From Stegostoma tigrinum (taxonomy: Eukaryota), in assembly GCF_030684315.1 (NCBI RefSeq), contig NC_081375.1, positions 37,757,828-37,821,827 on the forward strand: a stretch of DNA of 64,000 nt, written 5' to 3'. The notes under the pieces were generated by a model, which ran no database searches, had not been told where the DNA came from, and saw only the letters and a list, made by a program, of their open reading frames with translations. A program made the translations under genes and the position numbers. Positions 6,190 through 62,009 of this stretch are shown here, one piece after another. How positions within the stretch are numbered: the stretch's first letter is position 1; every line of letters starts with the position of its first letter.

Positions 6190-6385
6190 GCTTGAGAGGT
6201 CTTGGAGTAACAGTGTGGAGCTGGAGGTACACAGCAGGCCAGGGAGCATCAGAGGAGCAGGAAAGCTGACACTTTAGGTCAGGACCCTTCTTCAGAAATC
6301 AGGGAAGGGGGAGCGAGCGAGCTCTGGAATAAGGTGGGGGGGGGGTGGGGCAGAGGAAGGTAGGTGGGATAGTGACAGGGTCTTG
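6190..6385 (-). mobile_element. Old PLE 3'-end fragment
   Basis: Reverse complement of the PLE 3' end, including a degenerate hammerhead motif at 6268-6295. Confidence 0.7.
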
Positions 6386-6660
6386 GTGAGGTCTTGGGTT
6401 TTTCTTAAGTTGGAACAAATGACCCCACCCATTCAGGCTAGGTCTAACTCTCAGAACCAGGAATTTTAGTTTTCGCTTTTAGCAGTTGCTGGGATAGGGA
6501 ATTATAGTAAAAGCAATTCTTTTCTGTTGTATTTTAGCTTTAGTGCAAAAAAAAGTGTATTTTGTTTAAAATCAAGTAGTTTGACCACTTGAATTGCATC
6601 TAGAATGCAACACTTTACACCGACCTTTAAAGTGAGGAAAAAAAAGTTAGCATCTAGGCT

Positions 6661-8639
6661 TCCTTCCCAAAATCCACAAACCTGCCTGCCCCGGTCGACC
6701 AATCGTCTCAGCCTGCTCCTGCCCCACCGAACTCATCTCCACCGATCTGGACTCCATTTTCTCCCCCTTGGTCCAGGAACTCCCCACCTACGTCCGTGAC
6801 ACCACCCACACCCTCCACCTCCTCCAGGACTTCCAATTCCCTGGCCCCCAACACCTCATCTTCACCATGGACGTCCAGTCCCTATACACCTGCATTCCGC
6901 ATGCAGATGGCCTCAAGGCCCTCCACTTCTTCCTGTCCCGCAGGCCCGACCAGTCCCCCTCCACCGACACCCTCATCCGCCTAGCCGAACTCGTCTTCAC
7001 CCTCAACAACTTCTCTTTTGACTCCTCCCACTTCCTACAGACTAAGGGGGTGGCCATGGGCACCCGCATGGGCCCCAGCTATGCCTGCCTCTTTGTAGGT
7101 TATGTGGAACAGTCCCCCTTCCGCACCTACACAGGCCCCAAACCCCACCTCTTCCTCCGGTACATTGATGACTGTATCGGCGCCGCCTCTTGCTCCCCAG
7201 AGGAGCTTGAACAGTTCATCCACTTCACCAACACCTTCCACCCCAACCTTCAGTTCACCCCTGCCATCTCCAGCACATCCCACACCTTCCTGGACCTCTC
7301 AGTCTCCATCTCAGGCAACCAGCTTTTAACTGATGTCCATTTCAAGCCCACCGACTCCCAAAGCTACCTAGAATACACCTCCTCCCACCCACCCTCCTGA
7401 AAAAATTCCATCCCCTATTCCCAATTCCTCCGCCTCCGCCCCCACGACAAGACATTCCACTCCCGCACATCCCAGATGTCCAAATTCTTCAAGGACCGCA
7501 ACTTTCCCCCCACAGTGAACGAGAACGCCCTCGACCGCGTCTCCCTTATTTCCCGAAACACGTCTCTCACACCCCACCCCCGCCACAACCGCCCTAAGAG
7601 GATCCCCCTCGTTCTCACACACCACCCCACCAACCTCCGGATACAATGCATCATCCTCCGACACTTCCGCCATTTACAATCTGACCCCAGCACCCAAGAC
7701 ATTTTTCCATCCCCACCCCTGTCTGCTTTCTGGAGAGACCACTCTCTCCGTGACTCCCTTGTTCGCTCCACACTGCCCTCCAACGCCACCACACCCGGCA
7801 CCTTCCCCTGCAACCGCAGGAAATGCTACACTTGCCCCCACACCTCCCCCCTCACCCCTATCCCAGGCCCCAAGATGACATTCCACATTAAGCAGAGGTT
7901 CACCTGCACATCTGCCAATGTGGTATACTGCATCCACTGTACCCGGTGTGGCTTCCTCTACATTGGGGAAGCCAAGCGGAGGCTTGGAGACCGCTTTGCA
8001 GAACACCTCCACTCAGTTCGCAACAAACAACTGCACCTCCCAGTCGCAAACCATTTCCACACCCCCTCCCATTCTTTAGATGACATGTCCATCATGGGCC
8101 TCCTGCAGTGCCACAATGATGCCACCCGAAGGTTGCAGGAACAGCAACTCATATTCCGCCTGGGAACCCTGCGGCCTAATGGTATCAATGTGGACTTCAC
8201 TAGTTTCAAAATCTCCCCTTCCCCAACTGCATCCCTAAACCAGCCCAGTTCGTCCCCTCCCCCCACTGCACCACACAACCAGCCCAGCTCCTCCACTTCA
8301 CCCACTGCATCCCAAAACCAGTCCAACCTGTCTCCGCCTCCCTAACCTGTTCTTCCTCTCACCCACCCCTTCCTCCCACCCCAAGCCGCACCCCCATCTA
8401 CCTACTAACCTCATCCCACCTCCTTGACCTGTCTGTCTTCCCTGGACTGGCCTATCCCCTCCCTACCTATCTTCTTTTCTCTCCATCTTCGGTCCGCCTT
8501 CCCCCCCTCTCCCTATTTATTCATGAACCCTCACCCCATCCCCCTCTCTGATGAAGGGTCTAGGCCCGAAACGTCAGCTTTTGTGCTCCTGAGATGCTGC
8601 TTGGCCTGCTGTGTTCATCCAGCCTCACATTTTGTTGTC
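6661..8639 (+). mobile_element. Penelope-like element (Neptune-type), 5'-truncated, copy 1
   Basis: RT motifs LPKIHK..RPIVS, MDVQSLYT, GVAMG, RYIDD; CxxxxCxxC linker (CNRRKCYTC); GIY-YIG domain VVYCIHCTRCGFLYIGE..R..EH. One stop at 7398-7400 and a small deletion. 13-bp TSD TAGCATCTAGGCT at 6648-6660 and 8640-8652. Confidence 0.93.
8548..8575 (+). ncRNA. Minimal type I hammerhead ribozyme motif in the PLE 3' region
   Basis: CUGAUGA-A-GGGU(CUAG)GCCC-GAAA-CG-UC: both core boxes are intact, stem II is present, and helix III is replaced by palindromic ACGU. Confidence 0.75.
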
Positions 8640-8729
8640 TAGCATCTAGGCTATTTCAGTATATTTTGAGGGCCTTGAGTCTGGTCCATAACAGTATCAA
8701 TCACTGAAGTCTCAACAAAGAAATGAAAC

Positions 8730-22734: not shown

Positions 22735-23661
22735 CTGAAAGTAGCCAGCAAAAACAAAAGAACATTCCAAGATTTGATTTGTAATTTAAAGCTTTTAAAA
22801 TCAGGACCACATTTCATGAGCTTATGCAATGCAATTTTCATGAGAATATCACTCTCTCTCCTTTGTGCAAAATAATTCAAATTAGGTCCAATAAAATTAA
22901 TGCACTAGTTCACTAAATCACAATAATTTCAATCAAATAGCCAACAAGCTTTTAAGCCTAACCTAACCACATGATTTGAATTCCAGAAATAATGATCAAT
23001 TCCTGGAACTAACTCCAAAATTATCCAACTTGATCAGCATTCTAAATACATACTTGAGTGACTCAATTATTTTAATGCAAAGATTTGCCATTTTTGTATG
23101 TTACATTGTTTGTAATAGTATGTTACTATTTACTGAACAGAAGATTGGTGGTAGAATGGTTTACAGCATATGGGCTTTTCACTTCTGGGATGGGAATGCA
23201 TATCCAGCCTTCCGTAAGGTAAACACATCTGTTCTCATTTCTAGATGCAAAAATTCAAAATGAAAATAAGGTCGAGACCAAAAAACTCAAATTGCTACAT
23301 TTTGACAAGATCTAACAGCCAGCACATCAGCAGTCTCAAGATGTGCCGTACGGATGGTTGGTAGAGATCCTTTCCAAGTGAAGTAGGAGAAAACACCACA
23401 TTCTCTATTAAAATGTGTCCTTCATCTACGACAGTAAAATTAAACTGAAAATGAGACACGATAGTGATTTTAAAAAAAAGGACCATCAATTTTCCAACTC
23501 CATCGTCTGATTTTAATACCTGGGCTTTCATGGACTGAAATGTTCACGGTTTAAAAAAACCACACCATTTATTAACTAAATAATTTCAGTTGAGGGTGGT
23601 TTTATCATTTTCATCAAATGAGACTGAAATCAGTAAACTGGTACTTTCATTTTGATTGAGG

Positions 23662-24330
23662 GATAGCAAGAACTTCAGATGCTGGAGTCAGAGATATCAC
23701 AGTGTGGAACTGGAGGAACACAGCAGGCCAGGTAGCATCAGAGGGGCAGGAAAGTTGATGTTTTGGGTTAGGACCCTTCTTCATAAATGAAGGGGGTGGG
23801 GAGGGAAACAGGGAAATAATGAGAGAGGGGAGATGGGGCTGGGGAAGGTAGGTGTGTTGGTGATGAATGAGTGCATGTAGGGGAGTGGTGGGGACTGGTC
23901 AGTGGGATGGGTGGGGAAGATAGGTGGGAGAGAAGATGGACAGGTTGTGTCAGGTCAAGGAGGCAGGGCTGAGGGGGAGGGTTGGATATGGGATGAGGCC
24001 AGGGTTGGGGAGATTTTAAAACTGATGAATTCATGTTCAGGATGGGCCGTAGGATCCCAAGACAGAATATATGAGCTGTTGCCCCTATGGTTTGCAGGTG
24101 GTGTCATTGTGACACTAGTCGAGGCCCAGAATGGACATGTTACCCAGGGAGTGGGGGAGTTAAAAATGGTTCATGACCAGAAGGAAGGCTGTGTCATTTG
24201 TTGTGTATGCGGCACACAGATTCTCTACAAAACACACAGTCTCGGAGTCTACACTTGGTCTCTCTGATGTAGAGGAGGCCACATTGGGAGCAGCAGACCC
24301 AGTTGACCAAGTTGGTAGACGTACAGGTCT
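23662..24330 (-). mobile_element. Old PLE 3' fragment (degraded GIY-YIG end, 3' region and tail)
   Basis: Diverged reverse complement of the PLE 3' ~650 nt; degenerate hammerhead at 23757-23784. Confidence 0.75.
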
Positions 24331-24829: not shown

Positions 24830-25455
24830 CTGCATGTGCATTAGTTCCTTGAAATGGCATCGCAGGCAGACAGAGCAGTGAAAGTAGCATTTGGCACACT
24901 CGCCTTCAGTTGCCAGTGCTTTGAACACAGGAGTTGTGTCATCATGCTGCAGCTGAACAAGACATTGGGGAGGCCAATTTTACAAAAGTGTACACAATTC
25001 TGGTTTCCCTGCTACAAGAAAGATGTTGTTAAACTTGAAAGGGTACAGAAAAGATTTAAAAGAAGTTGCTGTGATTGGAGGGTTTGAACTATAGGGAAGA
25101 GGCAAAATAGGTTGGAATTCCACCCCTCCCCGTAGTGTTGGGGCTGAGGGGTGACCTTAGAAGTTTATAAAATCACGAGGGGTGTGGAAATAATGAATAG
25201 CCAAGGTCTTTTTCTCAGGATAGGAGAATCCAAAACTAGAGGGTACAGGTTTAAGGTGAGAGGGGAAAAGATCCAAAACAGACCCGAGGGGCAACTTCTT
25301 CATGCAGGGGGTGGTGGTGCAGGCAGACACAATTACAACATTTAAAAGGCATCTGGATGGGTACGTGAGTAAGAAGGATTGAGGGATATGGCCAAATGGG
25401 AAATGAGAAAGTTGAAGATATCTGGTTGGTGCAGACAAGTTGGACTGAAGGGAAC
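24830..25455 (+). mobile_element. CR1 LINE 3' fragment
   Basis: ORF 24854-25087 (YKKDVVKLERVQKRF) and a CR1-like 3' region. Confidence 0.8.
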
Positions 25456-25810
25456 ATGCTTAAATATATTTTTAAAAGTTTCTAAGAATGGACAGTTGTA
25501 TATTAACGGTCTGATTGGAAAATGGTTTAACAAACTTGGAGTTTGAGGTTGTTGCGAATAAAATTGATAATGGGGAAGCTCGGTGCATACAGTATACTTT
25601 GTTTGCAGAAGTCTCTTGGTAAAGTTCCCCACAGAAGCTTGGTTAACAAAATTAAAACATATGGACAGGAGGTAATGTAGTGTAACGAGTTAAGGATGAG
25701 CTAACAGATAGAATGCTGTAAAACTAAAATGGGTCATTTTCTCATTGGCAAGCAACGATTACTGCAGTATTACAAGAATCAGACCTTGGGCCCAGCTGTT
25801 TACAATGTGT

Positions 25811-27316
25811 CAGAGATAATGGGAACTGCAGATGCTGGAGAATTCCAAGATAATAAAATGTGAGGCTGGATGAACACAGCAGGCCAAGCAGCATCTCAGG
25901 AGCACAAAAGCTGACGTTTTGGGCCTAGACCCTTCATCAGAGAGGGGGATGGGGAGAGGGAACTGGAATAAATAGGGAGAGAGGGGGAGGCGGACCGAAG
26001 ATGGAGAGTAAAGAAGATAGGTGGAGACAGTACAGGTGGGGAGGTAGGGAGGGGATAGGTCAGTCCAGGGAAGACGGACAGGTCAAGGAGGTGGGATGAG
26101 GTTAGTAGGTAGATGGGGGTGCGGCTTGGGGTGGGAGGAAGGGATGGGTGAGAGGAAGAACCAGTTAGGGAGGCAGAGACAGGTTGGACTGGTTTTGGGA
26201 TGCAGGGGGGGGGGGGGGGGGGGGGGGGGAAAGAAAGAGAGAGAAGAGAAGAGAAGAGAAGAGCTGGGCTGGTTGTGATTCCACCAACCTCCGGATACAA
26301 CGCATCATCCTCCGACACTTCCGCCATTTACAATCCGACCCCACCACCCAAGACATCTTTCCATCCCCACTCCTGTCTGCTTTCCGGAGAGACCACTCTC
26401 TCCGTGACTCCCTTGTTCGCTCCACACTGCCCTCCAACCCCACCACACCCGGCACCTTCCCCTGCAACCGCAGGAAATGCTACACTTGCCCCCACACCTC
26501 CCCCCTCACCCCTATCCCAGGCCCCAAGATGACATTCCACATTAAGCAGAGGTTCACCTGCACATCTGCCAATGTGGTATACTGCATCCACTGTACCCGG
26601 TGTGGCTTCCTCTACATTGGGGAAACCAAGCGGAGGCTTGGAGACCGCTTTGCAGAACACCTCCGCTCAGTTCGCAACAAACAACTGCACCTCCCAGTCG
26701 CAAATCATTTCCACTCCCCCTCCCATTCTTTAGATGACATGTCCATCATGGGCCTCCTGCACTGCCACAATGATGCCACCCGAAGGTTGCAGGAACAGCA
26801 ACTCATATTCCGCCAGGGAACCCTGCAGCCTAATGGTATCAATGTGGACTTCACCAGTTTCAAAATCTCCCCTTCCCCTACTGCATCCCTAAACCAGCCC
26901 AGTTCGTCCCCTCCCCCCACTGCACCACACAACCAGCCCAGCTCTTCCCCCCCACCCACTGCATCCCAAAACCAGTCCAACCTGTCTCTGCCTCCCTAAC
27001 CTGTTCTTCCTCTCACCCATCCCTTCCTCCCACCCCAAGCCGCACCCCCATCTACCTACTAACCTCATCCCACCTCCTTGACCTGTCCGTCTTCCCTGGA
27101 CTGACCTATCCCCTCCCTACCTCCCCACCTACACTCTCTCCACCTATCTTCTTTACTCTCCATCTTCGGTCTGCCTCCCCCTCTCTCCCTATTTATTCCA
27201 GTTCCCTCTCCCCATCACCCTCTCTGATGAAGGGTCTAGGCCTGAAACATCAGCTTTTGTGCTCCTGAGATGCTGCTTGGCCTGCTGTGTTCATCCAGCC
27301 TCACATTTTATTATCT
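25811..27316 (+). mobile_element. Penelope-like element copy 2: inverted 3' arm (25811-26278, minus) fused to direct arm (26281-27316)
   Basis: GIY-YIG ORF nearly identical to copy 1. The left arm is the reverse complement of the 3' end. 14-bp TSD TGTTTACAATGTGT at 25797-25810 and 27317-27330. It interrupts an older LINE RT fragment. Confidence 0.93.
26205..26262 (+). repeat. Poly-G run followed by (GAGAA)n microsatellite
   Basis: About 25 G then aaagaaagagaga(gaaga)n, inside the inverted PLE arm. Confidence 0.9.
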
Positions 27317-28967
27317 TGTTTACAATGTGTGTTTGGTTGGAAGGTGCACAAATATAAAAAGTGAGTTAGGTTACTTTAAGTCCCTGAAAGATGACATGCA
27401 GGTGTAGCTTTCCTAATGTCCTGCTATCAGTATGTTAGCCTTTAGCAAGAGTACAGGAGCAGCACAGTCTTGTGTCTGTTGTATGGGAGCTTGATTAGCA
27501 TCTGGGAGTACTGCATGCAGTTGTAATTCCCTTACCTTAGGATGGCTATTAATTGCTGGAGAAAAAAATGCAACAGAGGTTCACCAGACATTTGGCATGG
27601 TGGCTTTAACTTATGAGACTGAGCAAATGGGGACTGTATTTTCTAGAATTTCAGAGTATGAGGGGTAACCACATTAAAACCTACAAAATACCTCAGAGAT
27701 AGATAGAGCAGTTACAGGTGAGATGTTTCCAATGGTTGGAGAATTTAAAATCAGAGACAGACAATTTCAAATTAAGTGAAGCCACTTGGGACTGACAGAA
27801 GAATTTTTCTACTCGCAAGTTGAGAATCTCAAATCTTATCAGGAACTCTGCCATTGAGTATGTTTAAGAGTGAACCTATTTCTTAACATCAATACCATAA
27901 CAAATACCAAGAATAGTGAGGAGAAAGACACAGAAGAAGTGGGTGAACAGCCATTACTGTACTAATTTATACTCATTGAGGCTAAACACCCAATTGCTTT
28001 CTCCATGTTCCTAATTCAAGGACAAGCCAAGGACATATTCTTTTACCTTCCTTTTTACAATGGAGACTATCCTCTAACTTTGTGCCCGTGTCAGTGTCTG
28101 CTTGATGTTGCATCTTTATTATTTTTCTTGTTGTTAATGATAACTTAATTAATTTTCTTTTCACGAGAAACTTTTGTAATTGGCTCCTTTATTCAGTTAG
28201 TGTTGGAGCCTTCAGTGACCATTGCAATTAAAGGATTCCTTCATTTATCTGCAAACTTCCAACATTCTGAAGTTGTAGTCAGTTTCAGAGGAATAATTAT
28301 GGTTGACTTGATAATTCACTATCAACACTGTCCCCTTTGGCTCAAAAATCCACTGCAAAATGAGATTCCTCCTCAATAAGGAACTGTTCAATACTTTGGC
28401 CAGATATATATTTTCACATTACATTGCAAAAGCCTGAAATGTGGTTCCAGGCAGTTAACAGAAAAGAACTGTTGTAGAACATGCTTCTTTAGTCTACTGT
28501 TTTCCCCTCAAGTAAAAGACATGAAGTTGCTTTACGAGCGTTCAGAAGATTGCACCTACTTGAGCAACTTTGTCATGAAAGCCTTCAGGCTTGGAGGACG
28601 CATTCCAAACAATATGCACGTTAGTACAATAAATCTACATTCAGCTAGCTACAACTGAAAATAATTTTAACTGTGCTCAGCAATTTAAAAAAAAATTTAG
28701 TACAGTGCTGGCTGTGCTTGTATCCAAGACTTCACAGGAAAGCCCCCTTGATTATTCATGTCAATTTGTTCAACTTGGGTAACTGCCTATTAACGGGGGG
28801 CTCAATCACCCTTGTTTGCAGCTGGCAAGCAATTTCAAAACAGTGCTAGAAATCCAGGACGAGGTTATCCAGCAGCGTAGGAAAAGATAGTGCAAAAGGT
28901 GTAGCACGGGAGAAAAGTCTTTGGACGATCAGCAAAAACAAACTGTTTGTCTACAGTATGGGGAAGA

Positions 28968-29050: not shown

Positions 29051-29679
29051 TTATTTATTATCTGTCATTTTTAATCACCTCCACCATTGGGTGAAATGTC
29101 ACAAGTACGGTTTGTAATAGGTTCTGCTGATAGTAATCCCATAATACCAGAGGAGTCACAGTAGTGTTATAGTGCAGAAGGAAGCCAGGTAGCCCACTGT
29201 GACTTCGTACACCCCCGTAATCAGCATTGTGACTTAGTGCCATACCCTCGCACATTGTTTCAATTGAAACAATAGCCTTTTACCCTCATACATGGTTAAA
29301 AGAATCTGCCACCATCACACTTCCAGGCAGTGCATTCCAGAACCAAAAATCACATGCTGAACCAGAACTGCACAGTGGTGATACTGAGCACGGAGTGGGA
29401 AGTGAAATGAAATAAGGAGTGTGATTAAGCAGCATAAATGTGCAAGAACAACAGAGAAATCAGAACTCAAAAACAGTACCACAATTCATCATCATAGCTT
29501 TGGGTAAGTTTTGGTTGACCACTTCCTCTGAATAGTTCTATCAGAAGTCTACTTATAATGAGGGGTAATCCCTCAAAATAGGCCTTTTTGGGAAGAGTGA
29601 ACTGGTGCAACTGCTGATGTCAAAATAATAGAAAACAATAGATGCAAAGGTTAAAAAAGCTAACTAAGTCTGTGCATTG

Positions 29680-32317
29680 ATAATGGGAACTGCAGATGCG
29701 GGAGAATACAAGATAACAAAGTGTGGAGCTGCATGAACACAGCAGGCCAAGCGGCATCTCAGGAGCACAAAAGCTGACGTTTCGGGCCTTGACCCTTCAG
29801 AGAGGGGTATGGGGAGAGGGAACTGGAATAAATAGGGAGAGAGGGGGAGGCGGACCGAAGATGGAGAGTAAAGAAGATAGGTGGAGAGGAGAGTATAGGT
29901 GAGGAGGTAGGGAGGGGATAGGTCAGTAGGGAAGATGGACAGGTCAAGGAGGCAGGATGAGGTGGTAGGTAGGAAATTGAGGTGCGGCTTGAGGTGGGAG
30001 GAAGGGATGGGCGAGAGGAAGAACAGGTTAGGGAAGCAGAGACAGGCTGGGCTGGTTTTGGGATGCAGTGGGGGAAGGGGAGATTTTGAAACTGGTGAAG
30101 TCCACATTGATACCATTGGGCTGCAGGGTTCCTAAGCGGAATATGAGTTGCTGTTCCTGCAACCTTTGGGTGGCATCACTGTGGCACTGCAGGGGGCCCA
30201 GGATGGACATGTCGCCTGAGGAATGGGAGGGGGAGTTGAAATGGCTCGTGACTGGGAGGTGCAGTTGTTTGTTGTGAACCGAGCGGAGGTGTTCTGCAAA
30301 GCGGTCCCCAAGCCTCCGCTTGTTTTCCCCAATGTAGAGGAAGCCACACCGGGTGCAATGGATACAATATACCACATTGGCAGATGTGCAGGTGAACACC
30401 TGCTTGATATGGAAGATCATCTTGGGGCGGTCCCATAATCCACAAACCTGCCTGCCCTGGTCGACCCATTGTCTCAGCCTGTTCCTGCCCCACCGAACTC
30501 ATCTCCACCTATCTGGACTCCATTTTCTCCCCTTTGGTCCAGGAGCTCCCCACCTATATCCGTGACACCACCCATGCCCTCCACCTCCTCCAGGACTTCC
30601 AATTCCCTGGTCCCCAACACTTCATTTTCATAATGGATGTCCAGTCCCTATACACCTGTATTCCTCATGCAGATGGCCTCAAGGCCCTCCACTTCTTCCT
30701 GTCCCGCAGGCCCGACCAATCCCCCTTCACCGACACCCTCATCCACCTAGTCGAACTCGTCCTCACCCTCAAAAACTTCTCTTTCGATTCCTCCCACTTC
30801 CTACAGACAAAGGGGGTGGCCATGGGCACCCAGCTATGCCTGCTTCCTTGTAGGTTACGTGGAACAGTCCCTCTTCCGCACCTACACAGGCCTCAAACCC
30901 CAGCTCTTCGTCCGTTACATTGATGACTGTATCGGCGCCGCCTCTTGCTCCCCAGAGTAGCTCAAACAGTTCATCCACTTTACCAACACCTTCCACCCCA
31001 ACCTCAAGTTCACCTGGGCCATCTCCAACACATCCCTCACCTTCCTGGACCTCTCAGTCTCCAGCTCAGGTAACCAGCTAGAAACTGATGTCCATTTCAA
31101 GTCCACTGACTCCCACAGCTACCTAGAATACACCTCCTCCCACCCACCCTCCTGCACAAATTCCATCCCCTATTCCCAATTCATCCGCCGCATCTGCTCC
31201 CAGGATGAGGCATTCCACTCCCGCACATCCCAGATGTCCAAATTCTTCAAGGACCGCAACTTTCCCCCTGCAGTGGCCGAGAACGGCCTTTACCGCATCT
31301 CCCGCAACACATCCCTCACACCCCGCCCCCGCCACAACCGCCCCCAGAGGATCCCCCTCGTTCTCACATACCACCCCACCAACCTCCGGATACAACGCAT
31401 CATCCTCCGACACTTCCGCCATCTACAACCCAACCCCACCACCCAAGCTATTTTTCCATCCCCACCCTTGTCTGCCTTCCGGAGAGACCACTCTCTCCGC
31501 GACTCCCTTGTCCGCTCCACACTCCCCTCCGACCCCACCATGCCCGGCACCTTCCCCTGCAACCGCAGGAAATGCTACACTTGCCCCCACACCCCCTCCC
31601 TCACCCCTATCCCAGGCCCCAAGATGACCTTCCATATCAAGCAGATGTTCACCTGCACATCTGCCAATGTGGTATATTGTATCCATTGCACCCGGTGTGG
31701 CTTCCTCTACATTGGGGAAACCAAGCGGAGGCTTTGCTTTGCAGAACACCTCTGCTCGGTTCACAATAAACAACTGCACCTCCCAGTCGCAAACGATTTC
31801 AACTCCCCCTCCCATTCCTCAGGCGACATGTCCATCATGGGCCCCCTGCACTGCCACAATGATGCCACCCAAAGGTTGCAGGAACAGCAACTCATTCTGC
31901 TTAGGAACCCTGCAGCCCAATGCAGCACAAGCTTCAAAATCTCCCCTCCCCCCACTGCATCCCAAAAGCAGCCCAGTCTGTCTCTGCTTCCCCAACCTGT
32001 TCTTCATCTCACCCATCCCTTCCTCCCACCTCAACCCGCACCTCCATTTCCTACCCACCACCTCATCCCACCTCCTTGACCTGTCCATCTTCCCTACTGA
32101 CTTATCCCCTCCCTACCTCCTCACCTATACTCTCCTCTCCACCTATCTTGTTTTCTCTCCATCTTCGGTCCGCCTCCCCCTCTCTCCCTATTTATTCCAG
32201 AACCCTCACCCCATCCCCTTCTCTGATGAAGGGTCTAGGACCGAAACTTCAGCTTTTGTGCTCCTGAGATGCTGCTTGGCCTGCTATGTTCATCCAGCTC
32301 CACACTTTGTTATCTTG
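29680..32317 (+). mobile_element. Penelope-like element copy 3: inverted arm (29680-30428, minus) plus direct arm (30431-32317)
   Basis: RT and GIY-YIG remnants with stops and deletions; the inverted arm encodes the GIY-YIG domain (ORF 30028-30420). 14-bp TSD AAGTCTGTGCATTG at 29666-29679 and 32318-32331. Confidence 0.93.
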
Positions 32318-32582
32318 AAGTCTGTGCATTGTTTACTTGAACAAAACATACTAAGTGGCATATTTTGAGTAATAGTGATTGCAGGCTGTTGGTTCTTAGG
32401 TCATTATGATGCTCCAGTCCTCAGATGTAGACTTAAACTATTTGTTGACATTTTAGGATTATTCTGTATGGAATGCCCAATTAATACAACCAAGTTTTAT
32501 AAATTTGTATAAAACAATAAAAGTGTAAAGACTAGTCAATACTAAACTGATAAAAAAAAAATCAGCTTTATAGTAATCTTAC

Positions 32583-48880: not shown

Positions 48881-51429
48881 ACTGAACCCTCAAATTGGAT
48901 AAGGTCACCTTGGAAGAAGGAGCATTGCATTGAAAAGAAAAATTACACATGGCGGCTCAGCAGTAACTTTGTGGAAGTCTTGTATTAACAGTCAATTGGC
49001 TTTAAAACCAGCAGCATTTTGGACACCATTTATGCAGAAACACCACTGCAACCGGATGCCCTGAAAAATAAACCAACCGATGCCCTATACTGGATTTGTT
49101 ATTTTTTTTAAAAAATAAAGAAGCAAAGACAAAACTGTTGTATATGCAGTATGAAGACAAAACAAAATAAAACTTCAAGTTACCACACAATGTGAAATTG
49201 GAATAGCTTAGACTCTCAAAATATAAGAACGCATCTGTGTGTTCAAAAGATTACAAAAGAAATCTAGTCACATAGCTTGATAAGTCATTTTATACTGGTA
49301 TTGGTACAGTGTCTTACATAAAAGAGGAGCCTTTTTCACAAAAGTACAAGATAAAGGTTGTTTCTCTTCAGTCACTTTGGAAATGTGAGGGTGGGGTTTC
49401 ATTAATGTCACTTCCAAACCAAGCCCCCTGATTTACCTCTAAACCATCTTTCTTGTATACTATCTTTCAGCTACAGAATCAGCTACCACATGCAGGCAGC
49501 AGCTTGACTTCGCTCCCATTTCCCACTACCCCATTAATGCCTGTGGTGTAACCTCTGCTACATTGAAACATGTGGAACAGCCAAAATTTCCTCAAATAAA
49601 ACATCAAGTTGAGAAAGCTGATTATGATCTGTCATTTCAATCTTGTTTCTATCCCAGTCACAAGCAGAATCTGAAACTGATCATGTGAACTCGTGTCCTG
49701 TGTGATCTACAGCTAGCTTTAAACTAGTTACTGTAATGATCACCAAGACTGTTTACAATCAAAATGCAATCCTACTCACCTGTACACATCCTTGCGATCA
49801 CCCCTCAACACCAACCTTTAGTCTCACTCCACAATCAAAACCCCTAGCTAATTGGACTATTTGCATAGTTACACGGTTTAAGAGTATTTATCTAGCTTAT
49901 CCTTAAATGGATTTATGCTAAATCAACTCAACGAATCCTCCTGGCAGCAAGTTCCACATTCTAATCTTTCTCTGAATAAAAAAATTCCCCTTGAATTTCC
50001 CATTTAATTACGGAATCCTATGAATAGGACTCCTAGCTTGGGTTATCCTCAGGTTAACCTCCTCTATAATCAATATTTGCAAACTCTTATATAAAAAGCC
50101 TACATCAGGTCATTCCTCAGCCTCCATTTTCCTGGAGAAAAACACTTCCAGCCTATTTAAATTACACTGAAGGATACAATCCTCATGCTGGAATTAGATA
50201 TTCTTCCCCTCCTTTGCTATCGTCTCTATCTCTTTCATGCTATGGAGAGCTAAACTGTTCATAGTACTCCAGGTTTGACAGGAATTTAACATTACTTTTC
50301 AGGTCTATCCCTCAAGAAAGGAACCCAAATGGGCCGAATAACTGCATCACTATCTGCAGCATTTTGTGTATTTCTACCTATAGATTCCTATGCTCATGTA
50401 CCCATTTAGGTACTGTACTTGTTTTCCCCATGAGAATGCGACCTCAAATCTTCCTACCAATACACAGCACCTCATTTTTCTATATTAAAGTTCACTTGCT
50501 AATTATGTGCCCATTTGGCAAGTCCTCCTCTATTTTGTCACATCCTCCTTTGCTTGAACTCCCAGTGTCCTGCGCAACTTTAGTAACCACAATTATTTAA
50601 GAAGTTCAAATCAATACATAAATGGGGGAGAAAACATTCTAACTGATATGTACTGGCCAGTAACACAGCTTCAAAAGTCCAACTTGCAAAGTAAGCCCAA
50701 TTATAGATTAATGCGAACATCACACAGTGGTGAAAGTTACACCTTTAACTTGTAGTAAATCATTAATTTCGGGAAGATCTTTCTTCCCCAGAGAGGCTGC
50801 AACTGCTTAAAATTTACAGTTTGTATGCCATGTCAAAACAAAATGACAAAAGGCAAGGTGATTTTCCATGAAGATTCCATTCAAAAAGCAGCATTATACT
50901 GGAGTATGTAAAAGACTGATTACACCTATTTTACAGCATTACATACACCAGATTAATACCCTCTAATTATGCATAATTTTTAATCATTTACAAATTGGTT
51001 CCTTAAATTATGCAGTGCAGGGATATGTCTAGAAACATTTCCAGATTATAAATTAGTTATCCAATGTCGAAATGAAGGAACAACTGAATACTTTTGCGCA
51101 AGTTAGACATTTGCTTGCATATGACTTCTATAAACAGTTAAACCAATTCAAAACCACTTGAAACTACTGCATTACACCAATTTATCATCAATTGGCAGAA
51201 AAGATTTTGTTGACAAAATACTTCACACTTACAGAAACCACAAAAAGAATTAACTCTTTACTCTAAGAAAATGGTAAAGCATAAAAGACTGTATCATAAA
51301 CTGAAACACTTAAAAATATTAGCAAGACTTCACTGAATGACATTGGCTTCTTCTTTTCCCCTTTATAGTTCTGTACCATTCACAAAAGTGAATAAGCTGA
51401 AAAGTGAGGACAGAAAGGGGGTAAACCAA

Positions 51430-51995
51430 GAGATAGCTAGAACGGTAGATGTTGGAGTCAGAGACAACACAGCAGGCCAGACAGCATCAGAGGAGCAGGA
51501 AAGTTGATGTTTCAGGTTGGGATCCTTCCTCAGAAATGGGGAGGGAGAAGGGAGCTGGGAAATAAATAGAGGAGCAGGGCTGGGGAAGGTAGGTAGGATG
51601 GTGATAGGTGAGTGCAAGGACGAAGTGGTGGGGAATTGGTCAGTAGAATGGGTGGGGAGGATAGGTTTCAGAAGATGGACAGGCTGCATCAGGTCAAGGA
51701 GGGGGTGAGTGAGAGGGAGTGTTGGATATGGGATGAGCCGGTTTTGGAGGGGGGGGGGGGGTGGTGTCCAGGAGATTTTAAAGCTGCCAAATTCCACATT
51801 TTAAGCCATTGGGCAGTGGGCTCCGGAGGCGGAATATGAGGTGCTGCTCCTCCAGTTTGTGGGTGGTATCATTGTGATACTGGAGAAGGCCCAGTATGGA
51901 CATGTTACCCAGGGAGTGGGAGGGAGACTTAAAATGGTTGGTGACTGGAAGGTGTTGACGTTTGTCAAGTATGGAGCGCAGATGCTCTACAAAAG
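51430..51995 (-). mobile_element. Old PLE 3' fragment
   Basis: Diverged reverse complement of the PLE 3' end (..FGSFKIS..); hammerhead-like motif at 51506-51533. Confidence 0.75.
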
Positions 51996-55204: not shown

Positions 55205-56685
55205 CCGAGTCCTTCAGCACAGAGATAGGCCCTTCGGCCCAAACTGGTCCATGCCGAACAAAATGTTGATCTAAGCTAACCCCATTTCCCTGCACTTGGC
55301 CCATATCATTCCAAACCTTTCCTATCCATGCATTTATCCAAAAGCCTTTCAACTGTTGTTAATGCACTCACCTCAACCACTTCTGCTGGTAGCTCATTCC
55401 ACGTGCAAACCACCTTCTGTTTTTTAAAAAAAAGTTGCCCCTCAGTTTCCCATTTATTCTCTCCCCCCTTACTTTGAGCTGATGCGCTCTAGTCCTCAAT
55501 TTTCCCTAACCTTGGGAAAAATACTGTGCATTCACCCAATCCATGCCTCTCATGATCTTACATACTTCCATAAGATTCACCCTCTTCAGTATCCCAAACT
55601 GAAGAAAAAAGTCCTAGCTTATCCAATCTCTCCAACTCAGTCGTCTTTTGAATTCTAGCAACATCCTTGTAAATTTCTTCTGCATGCTTTCCAGTTTAAT
55701 AACATCCTTCCTATAGCAAGATGACCAAAACTGAACATAATACTCCGAGTGCAGCCTCACCAACATCCTGTACAACTGCAACATAACTTCCCAACATCTA
55801 TACTCAGTGCTCTTGACTGACATAGGGCAGTGTGCCAACACCCTTCTTCACGGATAGCAGGAACTGCAGAATCGCTGTGTTCATCCAGCTCTATACCTTT
55901 CTTCACGGCCCTGTCTACCCGAGACTCCACTTTCAGAAACACACACCTGAGCGCCAAGGTCCCCCTGTTCCACTACAGGTGGTGATCTGCCCTTTTTCAA
56001 GGGCTGCAAAGAAAAACCTGGGAACTATTGACCAGTAAACCAGTGATAGATAAGTTACTCGAGTAGATTCTGAGGGATTACACATGCATTTCAAAAGACA
56101 GGGTTTGCTTAGGAGTAGTCAGCATGGCTTTGTACGTGGGAGATCATGCCTCACAAAATTTGTTACAGTTCTTTGAAGTGACCAGGAAGGTTATTGAGGG
56201 CAGGGTGGTAGATATAGTCTGTATGGATTTCAGGAAGGCCTTTGATAAGGTTCCACATGATGGACTGCTCTGGTAGCTTAGATCACATGGAATCCACGGA
56301 GAGCTAGAAAATTGGATACACAAGCTGGCTTGATGGTAGGAAGCAGAGTGTGATTGTGGAAGGATGCTAATCGGACTGAAGGCCTGTCTCTGGTGGTGTG
56401 CCCCGGGTGGCGCTGGATCCATTGCCATTTGTTATCTATTACAATGATTTGGATGACAATGTACAAGGCATGATTTTGTTTGCAGATGACACTAAAATAG
56501 GCAGTATCATGGACAGTAAGGAAGGTTATCGGAAACTGCAGCAGGATCTTGATCAGCTGGGGAATGGGCAGAGAAATGACAAATGGAGTTTAATGCAACA
56601 AAATGAGATGTTGCATTTTGGAAAGTCAAATCAATGTAGGAGTTACATGATGAATGGCAGGGGCCTATGGATTGCAGTGGAAGTC
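55205..56685 (-). mobile_element. CR1 LINE 3' part (55205-55975, minus) with an inverted RT segment (55980-56685, plus)
   Basis: Minus piece: LKVESRVDRAVKK...YRKDVIKLE..tail. Plus piece: FVIYYNDLDDNV..FADDTKIG..LHFGKSN. Confidence 0.8.
55854..55894. mobile_element. 41-bp ends-only Penelope-like footprint
   Basis: Inverted tail ATAGCAGGAACTGCAGA plus direct 3' end GCTGTGTTCATCCAGCTC, flanked by ACC(C/T)TTCTTCACGG at 55840-55853 and 55895-55908, inside a CR1 RT fragment. Confidence 0.75.
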
Positions 56686-60829: not shown

Positions 60830-60985
60830 AAAACTACCCCGTCTTCTCCCCCAGCCCACCCCTTCTCTGTTTATTTCGGATCCCCCTCCCTCCCGCCTAT
60901 TTATGAAGAAGGGTCATGACCCGAACGTCAACTTTCCTGCTGTTCTGATGCTACCTGGCCTGCTACCTGTTGTGTTCTCTCTACA
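60830..60985 (+). mobile_element. Short PLE 3'-end fragment next to the promoter
   Basis: ATGAAGAAGGGTCATGACCCGAACGTCAACTTTCCTGCTGTTCTGATGCTACCTGGCCTGCT matches the PLE terminus. Confidence 0.7.
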
Positions 60986-62009
60986 ACGGTGCTTAAAGTT
61001 TTCTTTTGCCTCCACTACCTTTCGGGAATGCACGCATTGTGCCATTTGTAGATCTGTTGTTTCCGAATGGGTGAAGTTTTTCACTGTGGCACCAACAAGG
61101 CTATCGCCTGTATTGTGTTTTAGATAGCTTCTTTAATGGCCATTGATCGTCCCAAAGTTCTTTACAGTGAAGTGATTTTGCAGTCGTGTTACAATGCACT
61201 CAATCTTGTTATAAACTCTAGAACAATTATAATCTGTCTCTGTGATGTTGGTTGAGTCTTAAATATTGACTAGAATACCAGGTTAACCTGCCTGGGGTAA
61301 TTTGAAACAGTGATTAATAGGTCTACTATTAGAATCAGAGCCAAAGGCACAACCTGAATGAGATTCACCTTAATGGAGCTACAGCTGACACAAAGTGTTC
61401 AATGTTGCAACACGTATTATACTTCAAATCATATAGCATGTTTCATTCCATGTATTTATTAGCTCAATCTAGAGTTAGATATTTTATTCCTCTTTGGGGC
61501 AGCCATGTGTCCCACCTACATAAACCTGAACTCAAACTCCATTGCCCTTAACACAACATATCGCATTGAAACATTATCTGTGCTCTCTGACCTACATTAG
61601 CTCTGTTTCTAGCAATACCTCAGTTTAACATTTTCAACATTCCCTTCAATTTTATCTTTGGCTTTGTCACTTGCTGTGTTTTCTTGTGGAAATGACAAAA
61701 TTGTCAGTGTTTAGTATCATTGCTCTTTTGGAATCTCCCAGACATTCATGATAATATGGGCGTCCTAAGGTCATTTTGAGACAGTCTATGTTCCTCCATA
61801 TGATGTACAGTAAATGTTTGTATAAAACACAAATATGAATTGAAGAGAACTTTAATTGTAATGCAGTTGGTCTCACTGTAAAATTTGCTGGGTGAATAAG
61901 GAAAAATAGTGTTCAATAAATATTTTTCGGGCTTGAGGAAAGCCTGTGGTGGAATTTTACAGGTGTCAGTATTGGGACCCTTGCTTTTCCTGACGTGTAT
62001 TAATGATCT

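Follow-up and report, generated by a model that had tools for sequence, protein, structure and literature searches.

Results

Two-armed insertions of a Penelope-like element in Stegostoma tigrinum

Three units made of two oppositely oriented pieces of a Penelope-like element (PLE), enclosed together by a single target-site duplication (TSD), were found in a stretch of 64,000 nucleotides from the shark Stegostoma tigrinum (assembly GCF_030684315.1, contig NC_081375.1, positions 37,757,828 to 37,821,827 of the forward strand), referred to here as the window and numbered from its first letter. These units are real back-to-back insertions of the element, and each of them probably arose as one insertion by twin target-primed reverse transcription. 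Two of the units, copies 2 and 3, keep long pieces (arms) of the element and the third is a short footprint, while copy 1 has a single arm. The features of these copies are as follows.

25797-27330: copy 2, whole unit
25797-25810, forward strand: left TSD of copy 2, 14 nt, TGTTTACAATGTGT, identical to 27317-27330
25811-25845, reverse strand: tail of copy 2, 35 nt beyond TTATCTTG
25811-26277, reverse strand: tail-bearing short arm of copy 2, 467 nt including a C/TCTTC microsatellite expansion (about 26206-26262)
26278-26280: inner 5'-to-5' junction of copy 2, three bases ATT matching neither arm
26281-27318, forward strand: tail-less long arm of copy 2, 1038 nt, with linker, GIY-YIG endonuclease, 3' region and hammerhead (27224-27251)
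27317-27330, forward strand: right TSD of copy 2, TGTTTACAATGTGT, its first 2 nt overlapping the arm end TTATCTTG (27311-27318)
29666-32331: copy 3, whole unit
29666-29679, forward strand: left TSD of copy 3, 14 nt, AAGTCTGTGCATTG, identical to 32318-32331
29680-30428, reverse strand: tail-bearing short arm of copy 3, 749 nt, with a tail of 29 nt at 29680-29708 and copy-2-type variants at 29811-29873
30429-30430: inner junction of copy 3, two extra bases GG
30431-32317, forward strand: tail-less long arm of copy 3, 1887 nt, with partial reverse transcriptase (RT) and endonuclease and copy-1-type variants at 32150-32212
32318-32331, forward strand: right TSD of copy 3, AAGTCTGTGCATTG
55840-55908, forward strand: footprint unit, with TSD at 55840-55853 and inverted tail-end arm at 55854-55870
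Remainder of the footprint, forward strand: three extra bases, tail-less arm at 55874-55894 (21 nt) and TSD at 55895-55908
6648-8652, forward strand: copy 1, single tail-less arm at 6661-8639 with RT, CX4CX2C linker, GIY-YIG endonuclease and intact hammerhead core, between 13-nt TSDs at 6648-6660 and 8640-8652

Copies 2 and 3 and the footprint share one order: a 14-nt TSD, an inverted arm ending in the tail, two or three extra bases, an arm without the tail, and the TSD again. This layout had been proposed in a first-pass annotation made from the letters alone, and it is borne out by the coordinates, by the exact 14-mers of copies 2 and 3 and by the repeat with one mismatch at the footprint. 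The extra tails of 35 and 29 nt placed on the inverted arms were confirmed as well, as was the stop of the direct arms of copies 2 and 3 at TTATCTTG (32310-32317 in copy 3). The chance of an exact 14-mer at two predefined ends is about 1e-8; as background, the window has some 50 further repeats of 12-25 nt spaced within 4 kb, and TTATCTTG by itself is not rare (10 matches versus 4.0 expected). A contig of the same species crossing the left junction of copy 2 (25450-25831, zero differences) has only 21 bases in the element, fewer than the 31 required for a contig to be counted, and possibly comes from the source sample; it was not taken as independent support.

The footprint insert measures 41 nt (55854-55894). 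Its inverted tail-end piece is 17 nt long, its tail-less arm stops more than 10 nt upstream of TTATCTTG, and the two arms have no sequence in common. A paralogue of the host repeat (24844-25038, 65% identical) aligns across the emptied footprint site and contains the duplicated stretch once. The host repeat extends over 55690-56058 and may belong to a CR1/L2-type LINE family; the flanks of copy 2 look similar to it by eye.

The TSD of about 14 bp that had been associated with the two-armed form is 14 nt in these units but is not special to them, being 13 nt in the single-armed copy 1. The asymmetry described between inverted and direct arms was likewise retained only in part: orientation is a drawing convention, but in 3/3 units the tail belongs to the arm that reaches less far 5', and it is missing from the longer arm in copies 2 and 3. 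Simple copying of the long arm at the DNA level therefore cannot account for the short arm. The outer ends fall at two fixed places 29-35 nt apart, and short matches of 1-2 nt between target and element RNA were judged by eye, against other copies, to be present at six of the seven outer ends of copies 1-3 and the footprint; at the footprint the match reaches 5 nt, with one family variant. The three inner junctions are all different, with 3, 2 and 3 extra bases and no overlap microhomology. Short stems of 3, 4 and 3 bp at these junctions (P 0.29, 0.10 and 0.29) are not clearly above chance, in a test that, owing to its limit on offset, passed over a gapped 5-bp stem in copy 2.

Two further observations were made on the arms. 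The C-run and TCTTC repeat expansion of the copy 2 tail arm (26206-26262) is absent from the long arm and could reflect slippage at reverse transcription or later. The long arms of copy 1 (6661) and copy 3 (30431), although of different subfamilies, begin at most 4 nt apart in the LLPKIHK codons, which may mark a frequent truncation point or the 5' end of an RNA.

An inverted duplication or conversion after insertion, two independent insertions at the same site, or the copying of a ready-made two-armed unit as a whole could in principle give a similar layout, and the existence of the single-armed copy 1 with its 13-nt TSD, the very high copy number of the family and the ability of PLEs to target their own pseudo-long terminal repeat (pLTR; PMC11167929) would be compatible with these routes. 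They are nevertheless highly improbable, given that a single TSD surrounds both arms in all three units, that the short arm has sequence missing from the long one and that no inner junction resembles another.

A second alternative is self-priming or fold-back. Here antisense RNA or the first complementary DNA (cDNA) would act as its own primer and so give rise to the mirror arm, and resolution of the intermediate by the endonuclease would leave one end with the tail. For head-to-head PLE repeats this model has been published (Arkhipova 2013, PMC3846280), and the tail is attributed to endonuclease resolution in Craig 2021 (PMC8557442). This explanation is considered unlikely for the shark units, although antisense self-priming followed by trimming keeps an appreciable chance. 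The tail on the shorter arm only, the non-overlapping arms of the footprint and the extra bases at the joints mean that plain fold-back copying of one cDNA fails; the inner junctions also show neither overlap microhomology nor stems clearly above chance. Moreover, the PLE of Anolis carolinensis named PAc directly extends both target strands in vitro (PMC11167929).

Hammerhead and tail

The region upstream of the tail contains a hammerhead-like motif.

25913-25940, reverse strand: minimal hammerhead core CUGAUGA...GAAAC-GUC with a G-to-A change in GAAA, a motif read from the sequence and compared with PMC4209133

Minimal dimer-type hammerheads have been described in metazoan PLEs (Cervera and de la Pena 2014, PMC4209133), and the shark motif shares with them the core CUGAUGA, stem II, GAAA and the palindromic ACGU in the region of stem III. 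In the short arm of copy 2 the predicted cut falls between 25913 and 25912, the internal end lying 67 nt away and the tail end 102 nt. A search of Rfam gave no hammerhead match.

The tail had also been said to pair through AGATGCTG with the upstream CAGCATCT. Folding of three tail-bearing ends predicts, in every one, a stem around the internal end, and the pairing is intact in copy 2; it is not intact in any other copy, the tail arm of copy 3 having a C-C mismatch. None of 18 pairs showed a compensatory change in an alignment of three sequences, and the tail region folded no better than shuffles (z 0.17).

Ends and joints across the family

The family was surveyed over the region 25450-26200 in contigs of the same species (X1), in bisulfite raw reads (X20) and in a relative (X9). 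Contigs and not loci were counted, and the results come from the best 15 of 395 joints, 24 of 1435 loose ends, 12 of 186 joints with letters between and 40 of 158 variants. Among the loose ends listed, X1 contigs part from the element at two places, near 25810 (at least 793 contigs) and near 25848 (at least 983 contigs), with a median loose length of 255 and an AT-rich consensus. Two outer-end classes therefore exist family-wide in similar numbers. The class at 25848 corresponds in part to a tail-variant subfamily, and the ratio of 793:983 is compatible with strict pairing and with independent choice alike; X20 yields no ratio of tail to no tail, C-to-T conversion penalising the reads of tail-less ends.

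In other copies the element extends past the tail (nine contigs of X9 and the end of the X1 consensus), and the tail end is therefore a position inside the sequence of pLTR and open reading frame (ORF) that need not be the RNA 3' end. The identification of the tail end with the true RNA 3' end was thus not supported; in vitro, reverse transcription also starts internal to its template's 3' end (PMC11167929).

A further 751 contigs, among the loose ends listed, exit at 25941, the 5' edge of the hammerhead core, where truncation may be frequent or homology to older subfamilies may run out. Two of the 12 listed joints with letters between begin at 25912, the first base past the hammerhead cut, and go to 25810 or 25846. 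The 5' ends of arms seem to cluster at the hammerhead (25912 and 25941). For PAc, the available text reports no RNA reads at the cut site (PMC11167929).

Additionally, the tail end (25806-25815) is joined to the internal end (25844-25849) on opposite strands, 3'-to-3' and with no target DNA between, in six of the 15 listed joints, which represent at least 130 contigs; no such joint is present in the 64-kb window. These joints need an extra step, which may be re-priming from the free sense end, self-priming of the RNA end or nested insertion of the element at its own end. In X20, at least three of the listed joints connect opposite strands within the near-palindrome of hammerhead stem II (25919-25939), with 100-126 starts each. 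Symmetric joints (tail to tail, internal to internal) are hard to see in de Bruijn contigs, and their lack among the joints listed is no evidence. Both observed kinds favor fold-back to some extent: the opposite-strand joints cluster in a near-palindrome, and self-priming of the sense strand is predicted to give tail-to-tail joints (PMC3846280), which the 130 or more contigs would represent.

One template or two

The two arms of copy 2 differ at 10 of 360 aligned bases outside the microsatellite, several of them at CpG. Those of copy 3 differ at 43 of 699. At 35 of 671 columns the copy 3 arms agree with each other against copy 1 and the long arm of copy 2, and both are without two of the 39-nt units; as judged from these columns, they are of one subfamily (B). 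Within 56 columns, however, four linked transversions separate them, the long arm carrying the copy 1 type and the short arm the copy 2 type. The check suggested earlier, whether the two arms of an insertion ever come from different subfamilies (two RNAs), gave two results: both arms are of the same subfamily in 2/2 testable insertions, and family variants are nevertheless discordant in one of the two, copy 3, and at no site in copy 2.

One of the four sites, 26009, is polymorphic in the family (60% of the depth in X1 and 66% of the reads in X20), and the other three are not among the 40 best of 158 variants. The Stegostoma protein described below carries the copy 2 type at this block. Recurrent mutation as the source of the block was excluded, its chance being about 1e-8, and a fifth discordant site (column 258) was set aside as a possible single homoplasy. 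Among the five arms, subfamily and variant block are found in each of the four possible combinations. The discordance fits either the copying of different pLTR units or a later conversion of one arm over 56 to about 165 nt. It hints, on thin evidence, at different RNA templates, and it is a further point against self-priming.

The first-pass annotation had suggested that two separate RNAs are held together by the ACGU palindrome of the hammerhead, one being copied internally and the other from its true 3' end. The discordant block of copy 3, the construction of minimal PLE hammerheads to act as dimers (PMC4209133) and the coincidence of PAc RNA-seq read ends with the start sites, according to the text of PMC11167929, are in its favor. 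Nonetheless, this version is very unlikely. Dimer-type hammerheads had already been published, and their pairing of integration templates is not described in the available text of PMC4209133; the arms belong to the same subfamily in both testable units, and the element runs beyond the tail in other copies. Furthermore, extra sequence 3' of the PAc template leaves the start unmoved, and catalytic mutants of its hammerhead insert normally, a predicted protein dimer being an alternative means of holding two templates (PMC11167929). The available text of that paper describes no mutants of the ACGU palindrome.

Identity and abundance of the element

In copy 1, a frame at 6651-8345 with one stop encodes, as read in its translation, a partial RT, the linker CNRRKCYTC and an endonuclease with VVY-CxxC-YIG. 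Its match to RVT_1 (E 4.8e-6) lies under the Pfam cut-off and the Pfam search of the window protein gave no GIY-YIG match; both PF00078 and PF01541 are found in homologues. Of 25 protein matches, the best was a Stegostoma tigrinum protein with 90% identity. RT is followed by a C-terminal GIY-YIG endonuclease in one ORF, as in endonuclease-bearing PLEs, and the CCHH motif, as defined in PMC8557442, is present: its two cysteines (VVYCIHCTRCGFLYIG) lie between GIY and YIG, and its histidines come further on, in AEH and ANH. The pLTR with hammerhead (by motif only), the tails of 35 and 29 nt, the inverted 5'-truncated copy and the TSD are also those of PLEs. A CX2-5CxxC linker between RT and endonuclease is found in Neptune and Nematis and absent in Penelope/Poseidon (PMC8557442); CNRRKCYTC, which is CX4CX2C, agrees with the first two and departs from the last. 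By these sequence characters, the element is a hammerhead-bearing PLE with a linker of Neptune/Nematis type.

Read depth in X20 was near 25,000 from 1,938 million letters. Assuming a host genome of a few gigabases and that half of the bisulfite reads can be placed, this suggests a family of the order of 10^5 arms. Exact-pattern scans for the element gave no loci in metagenome, viral or prokaryote genome contigs, and a protein scan of metagenomes gave two short contigs at 26-31% identity, which were not used.

Other copies and repeats were noted in the window. A 39-nt unit after the endonuclease (8198-8332, 26852-26986 and 31926-31982) serves as a subfamily marker: copies 1 and 2 have three of these units, and each arm of copy 3 has one. 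Four older copies belong to subfamily C. One of them, a single arm at 6194-6397 (element 6206-6385), has a plausible TSD of about 10-13 nt, part of which is repeated at the 5' junction; another has a doubtful 12-nt match with two mismatches, two are without TSD, and none is two-armed. The old subfamily-C fragments at 23659-24330, 51429-51993 and 60854-60990 have hammerhead-like cores, two of them with the tail and none with an evident TSD or another arm.

Discussion

Proposed mechanism and templates

Two opposite-oriented pieces derived from RNA lie inside one TSD in 3/3 units, as expected of a twin-priming product. In the proposed mechanism, the endonuclease would nick both strands 13-14 nt apart, and cDNA synthesis would be primed by each free 3' end, beginning at one of two fixed start sites of the element RNA. 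Both primings would occur on a single target molecule, and an end-joining step would connect the growing ends of the two cDNAs (5'-to-5'), after which each cDNA could template the second strand of the other. The tail would then be the RNA between the two start sites, both of which are likely internal. We infer that both pieces were primed from 3' ends of the target DNA on the basis of the fixed outer ends, the short matches between target and RNA and the biochemistry of PAc. The earlier proposal that both staggered nicks prime, at two start sites, and that the products join 5'-to-5' is thus supported by the tail on the shorter arm, the non-overlapping footprint arms, the two or three extra junction bases and the PAc results.

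As to the template, two different pLTR units on one tandem transcript are a tentative choice. Two RNA molecules are a somewhat weaker candidate, and the same holds for one pLTR copied twice with strand displacement, which needs a later gene conversion in copy 3. The shorter tail arm in 3/3 units fits a polymerase that trails on a single RNA, and it fits a tandem RNA with a 5' partial pLTR just as well; the latter would also account for the discordance of copy 3. A more speculative possibility, to which we give a low probability, is that a dimeric enzyme loads two different pLTR templates, with one nick always using the internal site as its start and the other nick the tail end, and that free ends are re-primed to give chains of alternating head-to-head and tail-to-tail arms; the copy 3 arms and the 130 joint contigs would be the footprints of this process, and some of its templates would be RNA cut by the hammerhead.

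Several points weigh against twin priming or limit its support. There are three two-armed units, and one tail per pair in 3/3 has a chance of 1/8 under an independent 50:50 choice. The start sites of PAc show no strand difference, so no published fact forces one tail per pair, and the in vitro gel is without proof that both strands of one molecule extend (PMC11167929). PAc belongs to the Poseidon clade, and the shark element has a linker that Poseidon lacks. The differences between the copy 2 arms look like ordinary decay with no discordance of family variants, and the four combinations among five arms indicate that recombination is common in the family, which makes gene conversion a real rival in copy 3. 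Finally, the many opposite-strand joins in the stem II near-palindrome are naturally explained by fold-back, and the joints of tail to internal end (at least 130 contigs) are not predicted by simple twin priming.

Comparison with known systems

The layout is not new for PLEs, as the first-pass annotation recognized, and has been published in Arkhipova 2013 and Craig 2021, the latter also giving the general insertion scheme (PMC8557442). Pen2a_Av of Adineta vaga has an inverted pLTR, a one-sided tail of 31 bp and a 9-bp TSD (PMC3846280); more generally, Pen2a_Av/Pen2_Av share with the shark units a 5'-truncated inverted copy placed head-to-head, a tail of 30-40 nt at one end and one TSD around the unit. 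By contrast, the shark TSD is 13-14 nt versus 8-10 nt, the shark arms measure 0.5-1.9 kb and the inner junctions do not form long palindromes.

PAc (Poseidon) nicks and extends both strands in vitro from two internal start sites bracketing the tail, with no need of homology (Frangieh et al. 2024, PMC11167929). It resembles the shark element in its hammerhead upstream of a predicted stem-loop, in the position of the two start sites and in its AT-rich flanks, and differs in that the shark element has the CX4CX2C linker and a distance of 67 nt from cut to first site, versus about 85-92 nt computed from the text of the paper for PAc. The inverted arm and the inner join are not modeled in the available text of that paper. 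For the shark element they are the features that the twin-priming mechanism is meant to explain.

For LINE-1, twin priming was reportedly put forward by Ostertag and Kazazian in 2001. In LINE-1 insertions, the second start is a variable internal site and there is little overlap between the pieces, whereas the shark element has both of its starts fixed close to the pLTR end, and in copies 2 and 3 the same region is copied by both arms. Twin priming is an accepted model for LINE-1, including a version with a second RNA proposed for antisense chimeras (PMC13174262), and it shares with our proposal the two reverse transcriptions from opposite ends of a staggered break, the opposite orientation, the single TSD and the possible second RNA. 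Its application to the inverted arms of PLEs was not found in the literature searched, a weak negative, as few subscription papers were covered.

Significance

The feature is real and its architecture known, while the core mechanism is plausible and largely anticipated by the biochemistry of 2024 and by LINE-1 twin priming. The discordant arms of copy 3 and the contig-level joints of tail to internal end are new here, as small leads on thin evidence and not as a discovery. The origin of the PLE inverted arm was stated to be unresolved in Craig 2021 (PMC8557442), and the steps after first-strand synthesis were left for validation in Frangieh 2024 (PMC11167929). The present value of these results is that of a testable lead, resting on one discordant insertion and on the contig-level joints. 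The shark family, with arms presumably of the order of 10^5, is a large natural data set for a count of arm templates and tails in young insertions. Should young insertions often combine arms from different templates, and have a single tail per pair in nearly every case, antisense self-priming would give way to twin priming with an asymmetric dimer as the working model for PLE insertion.

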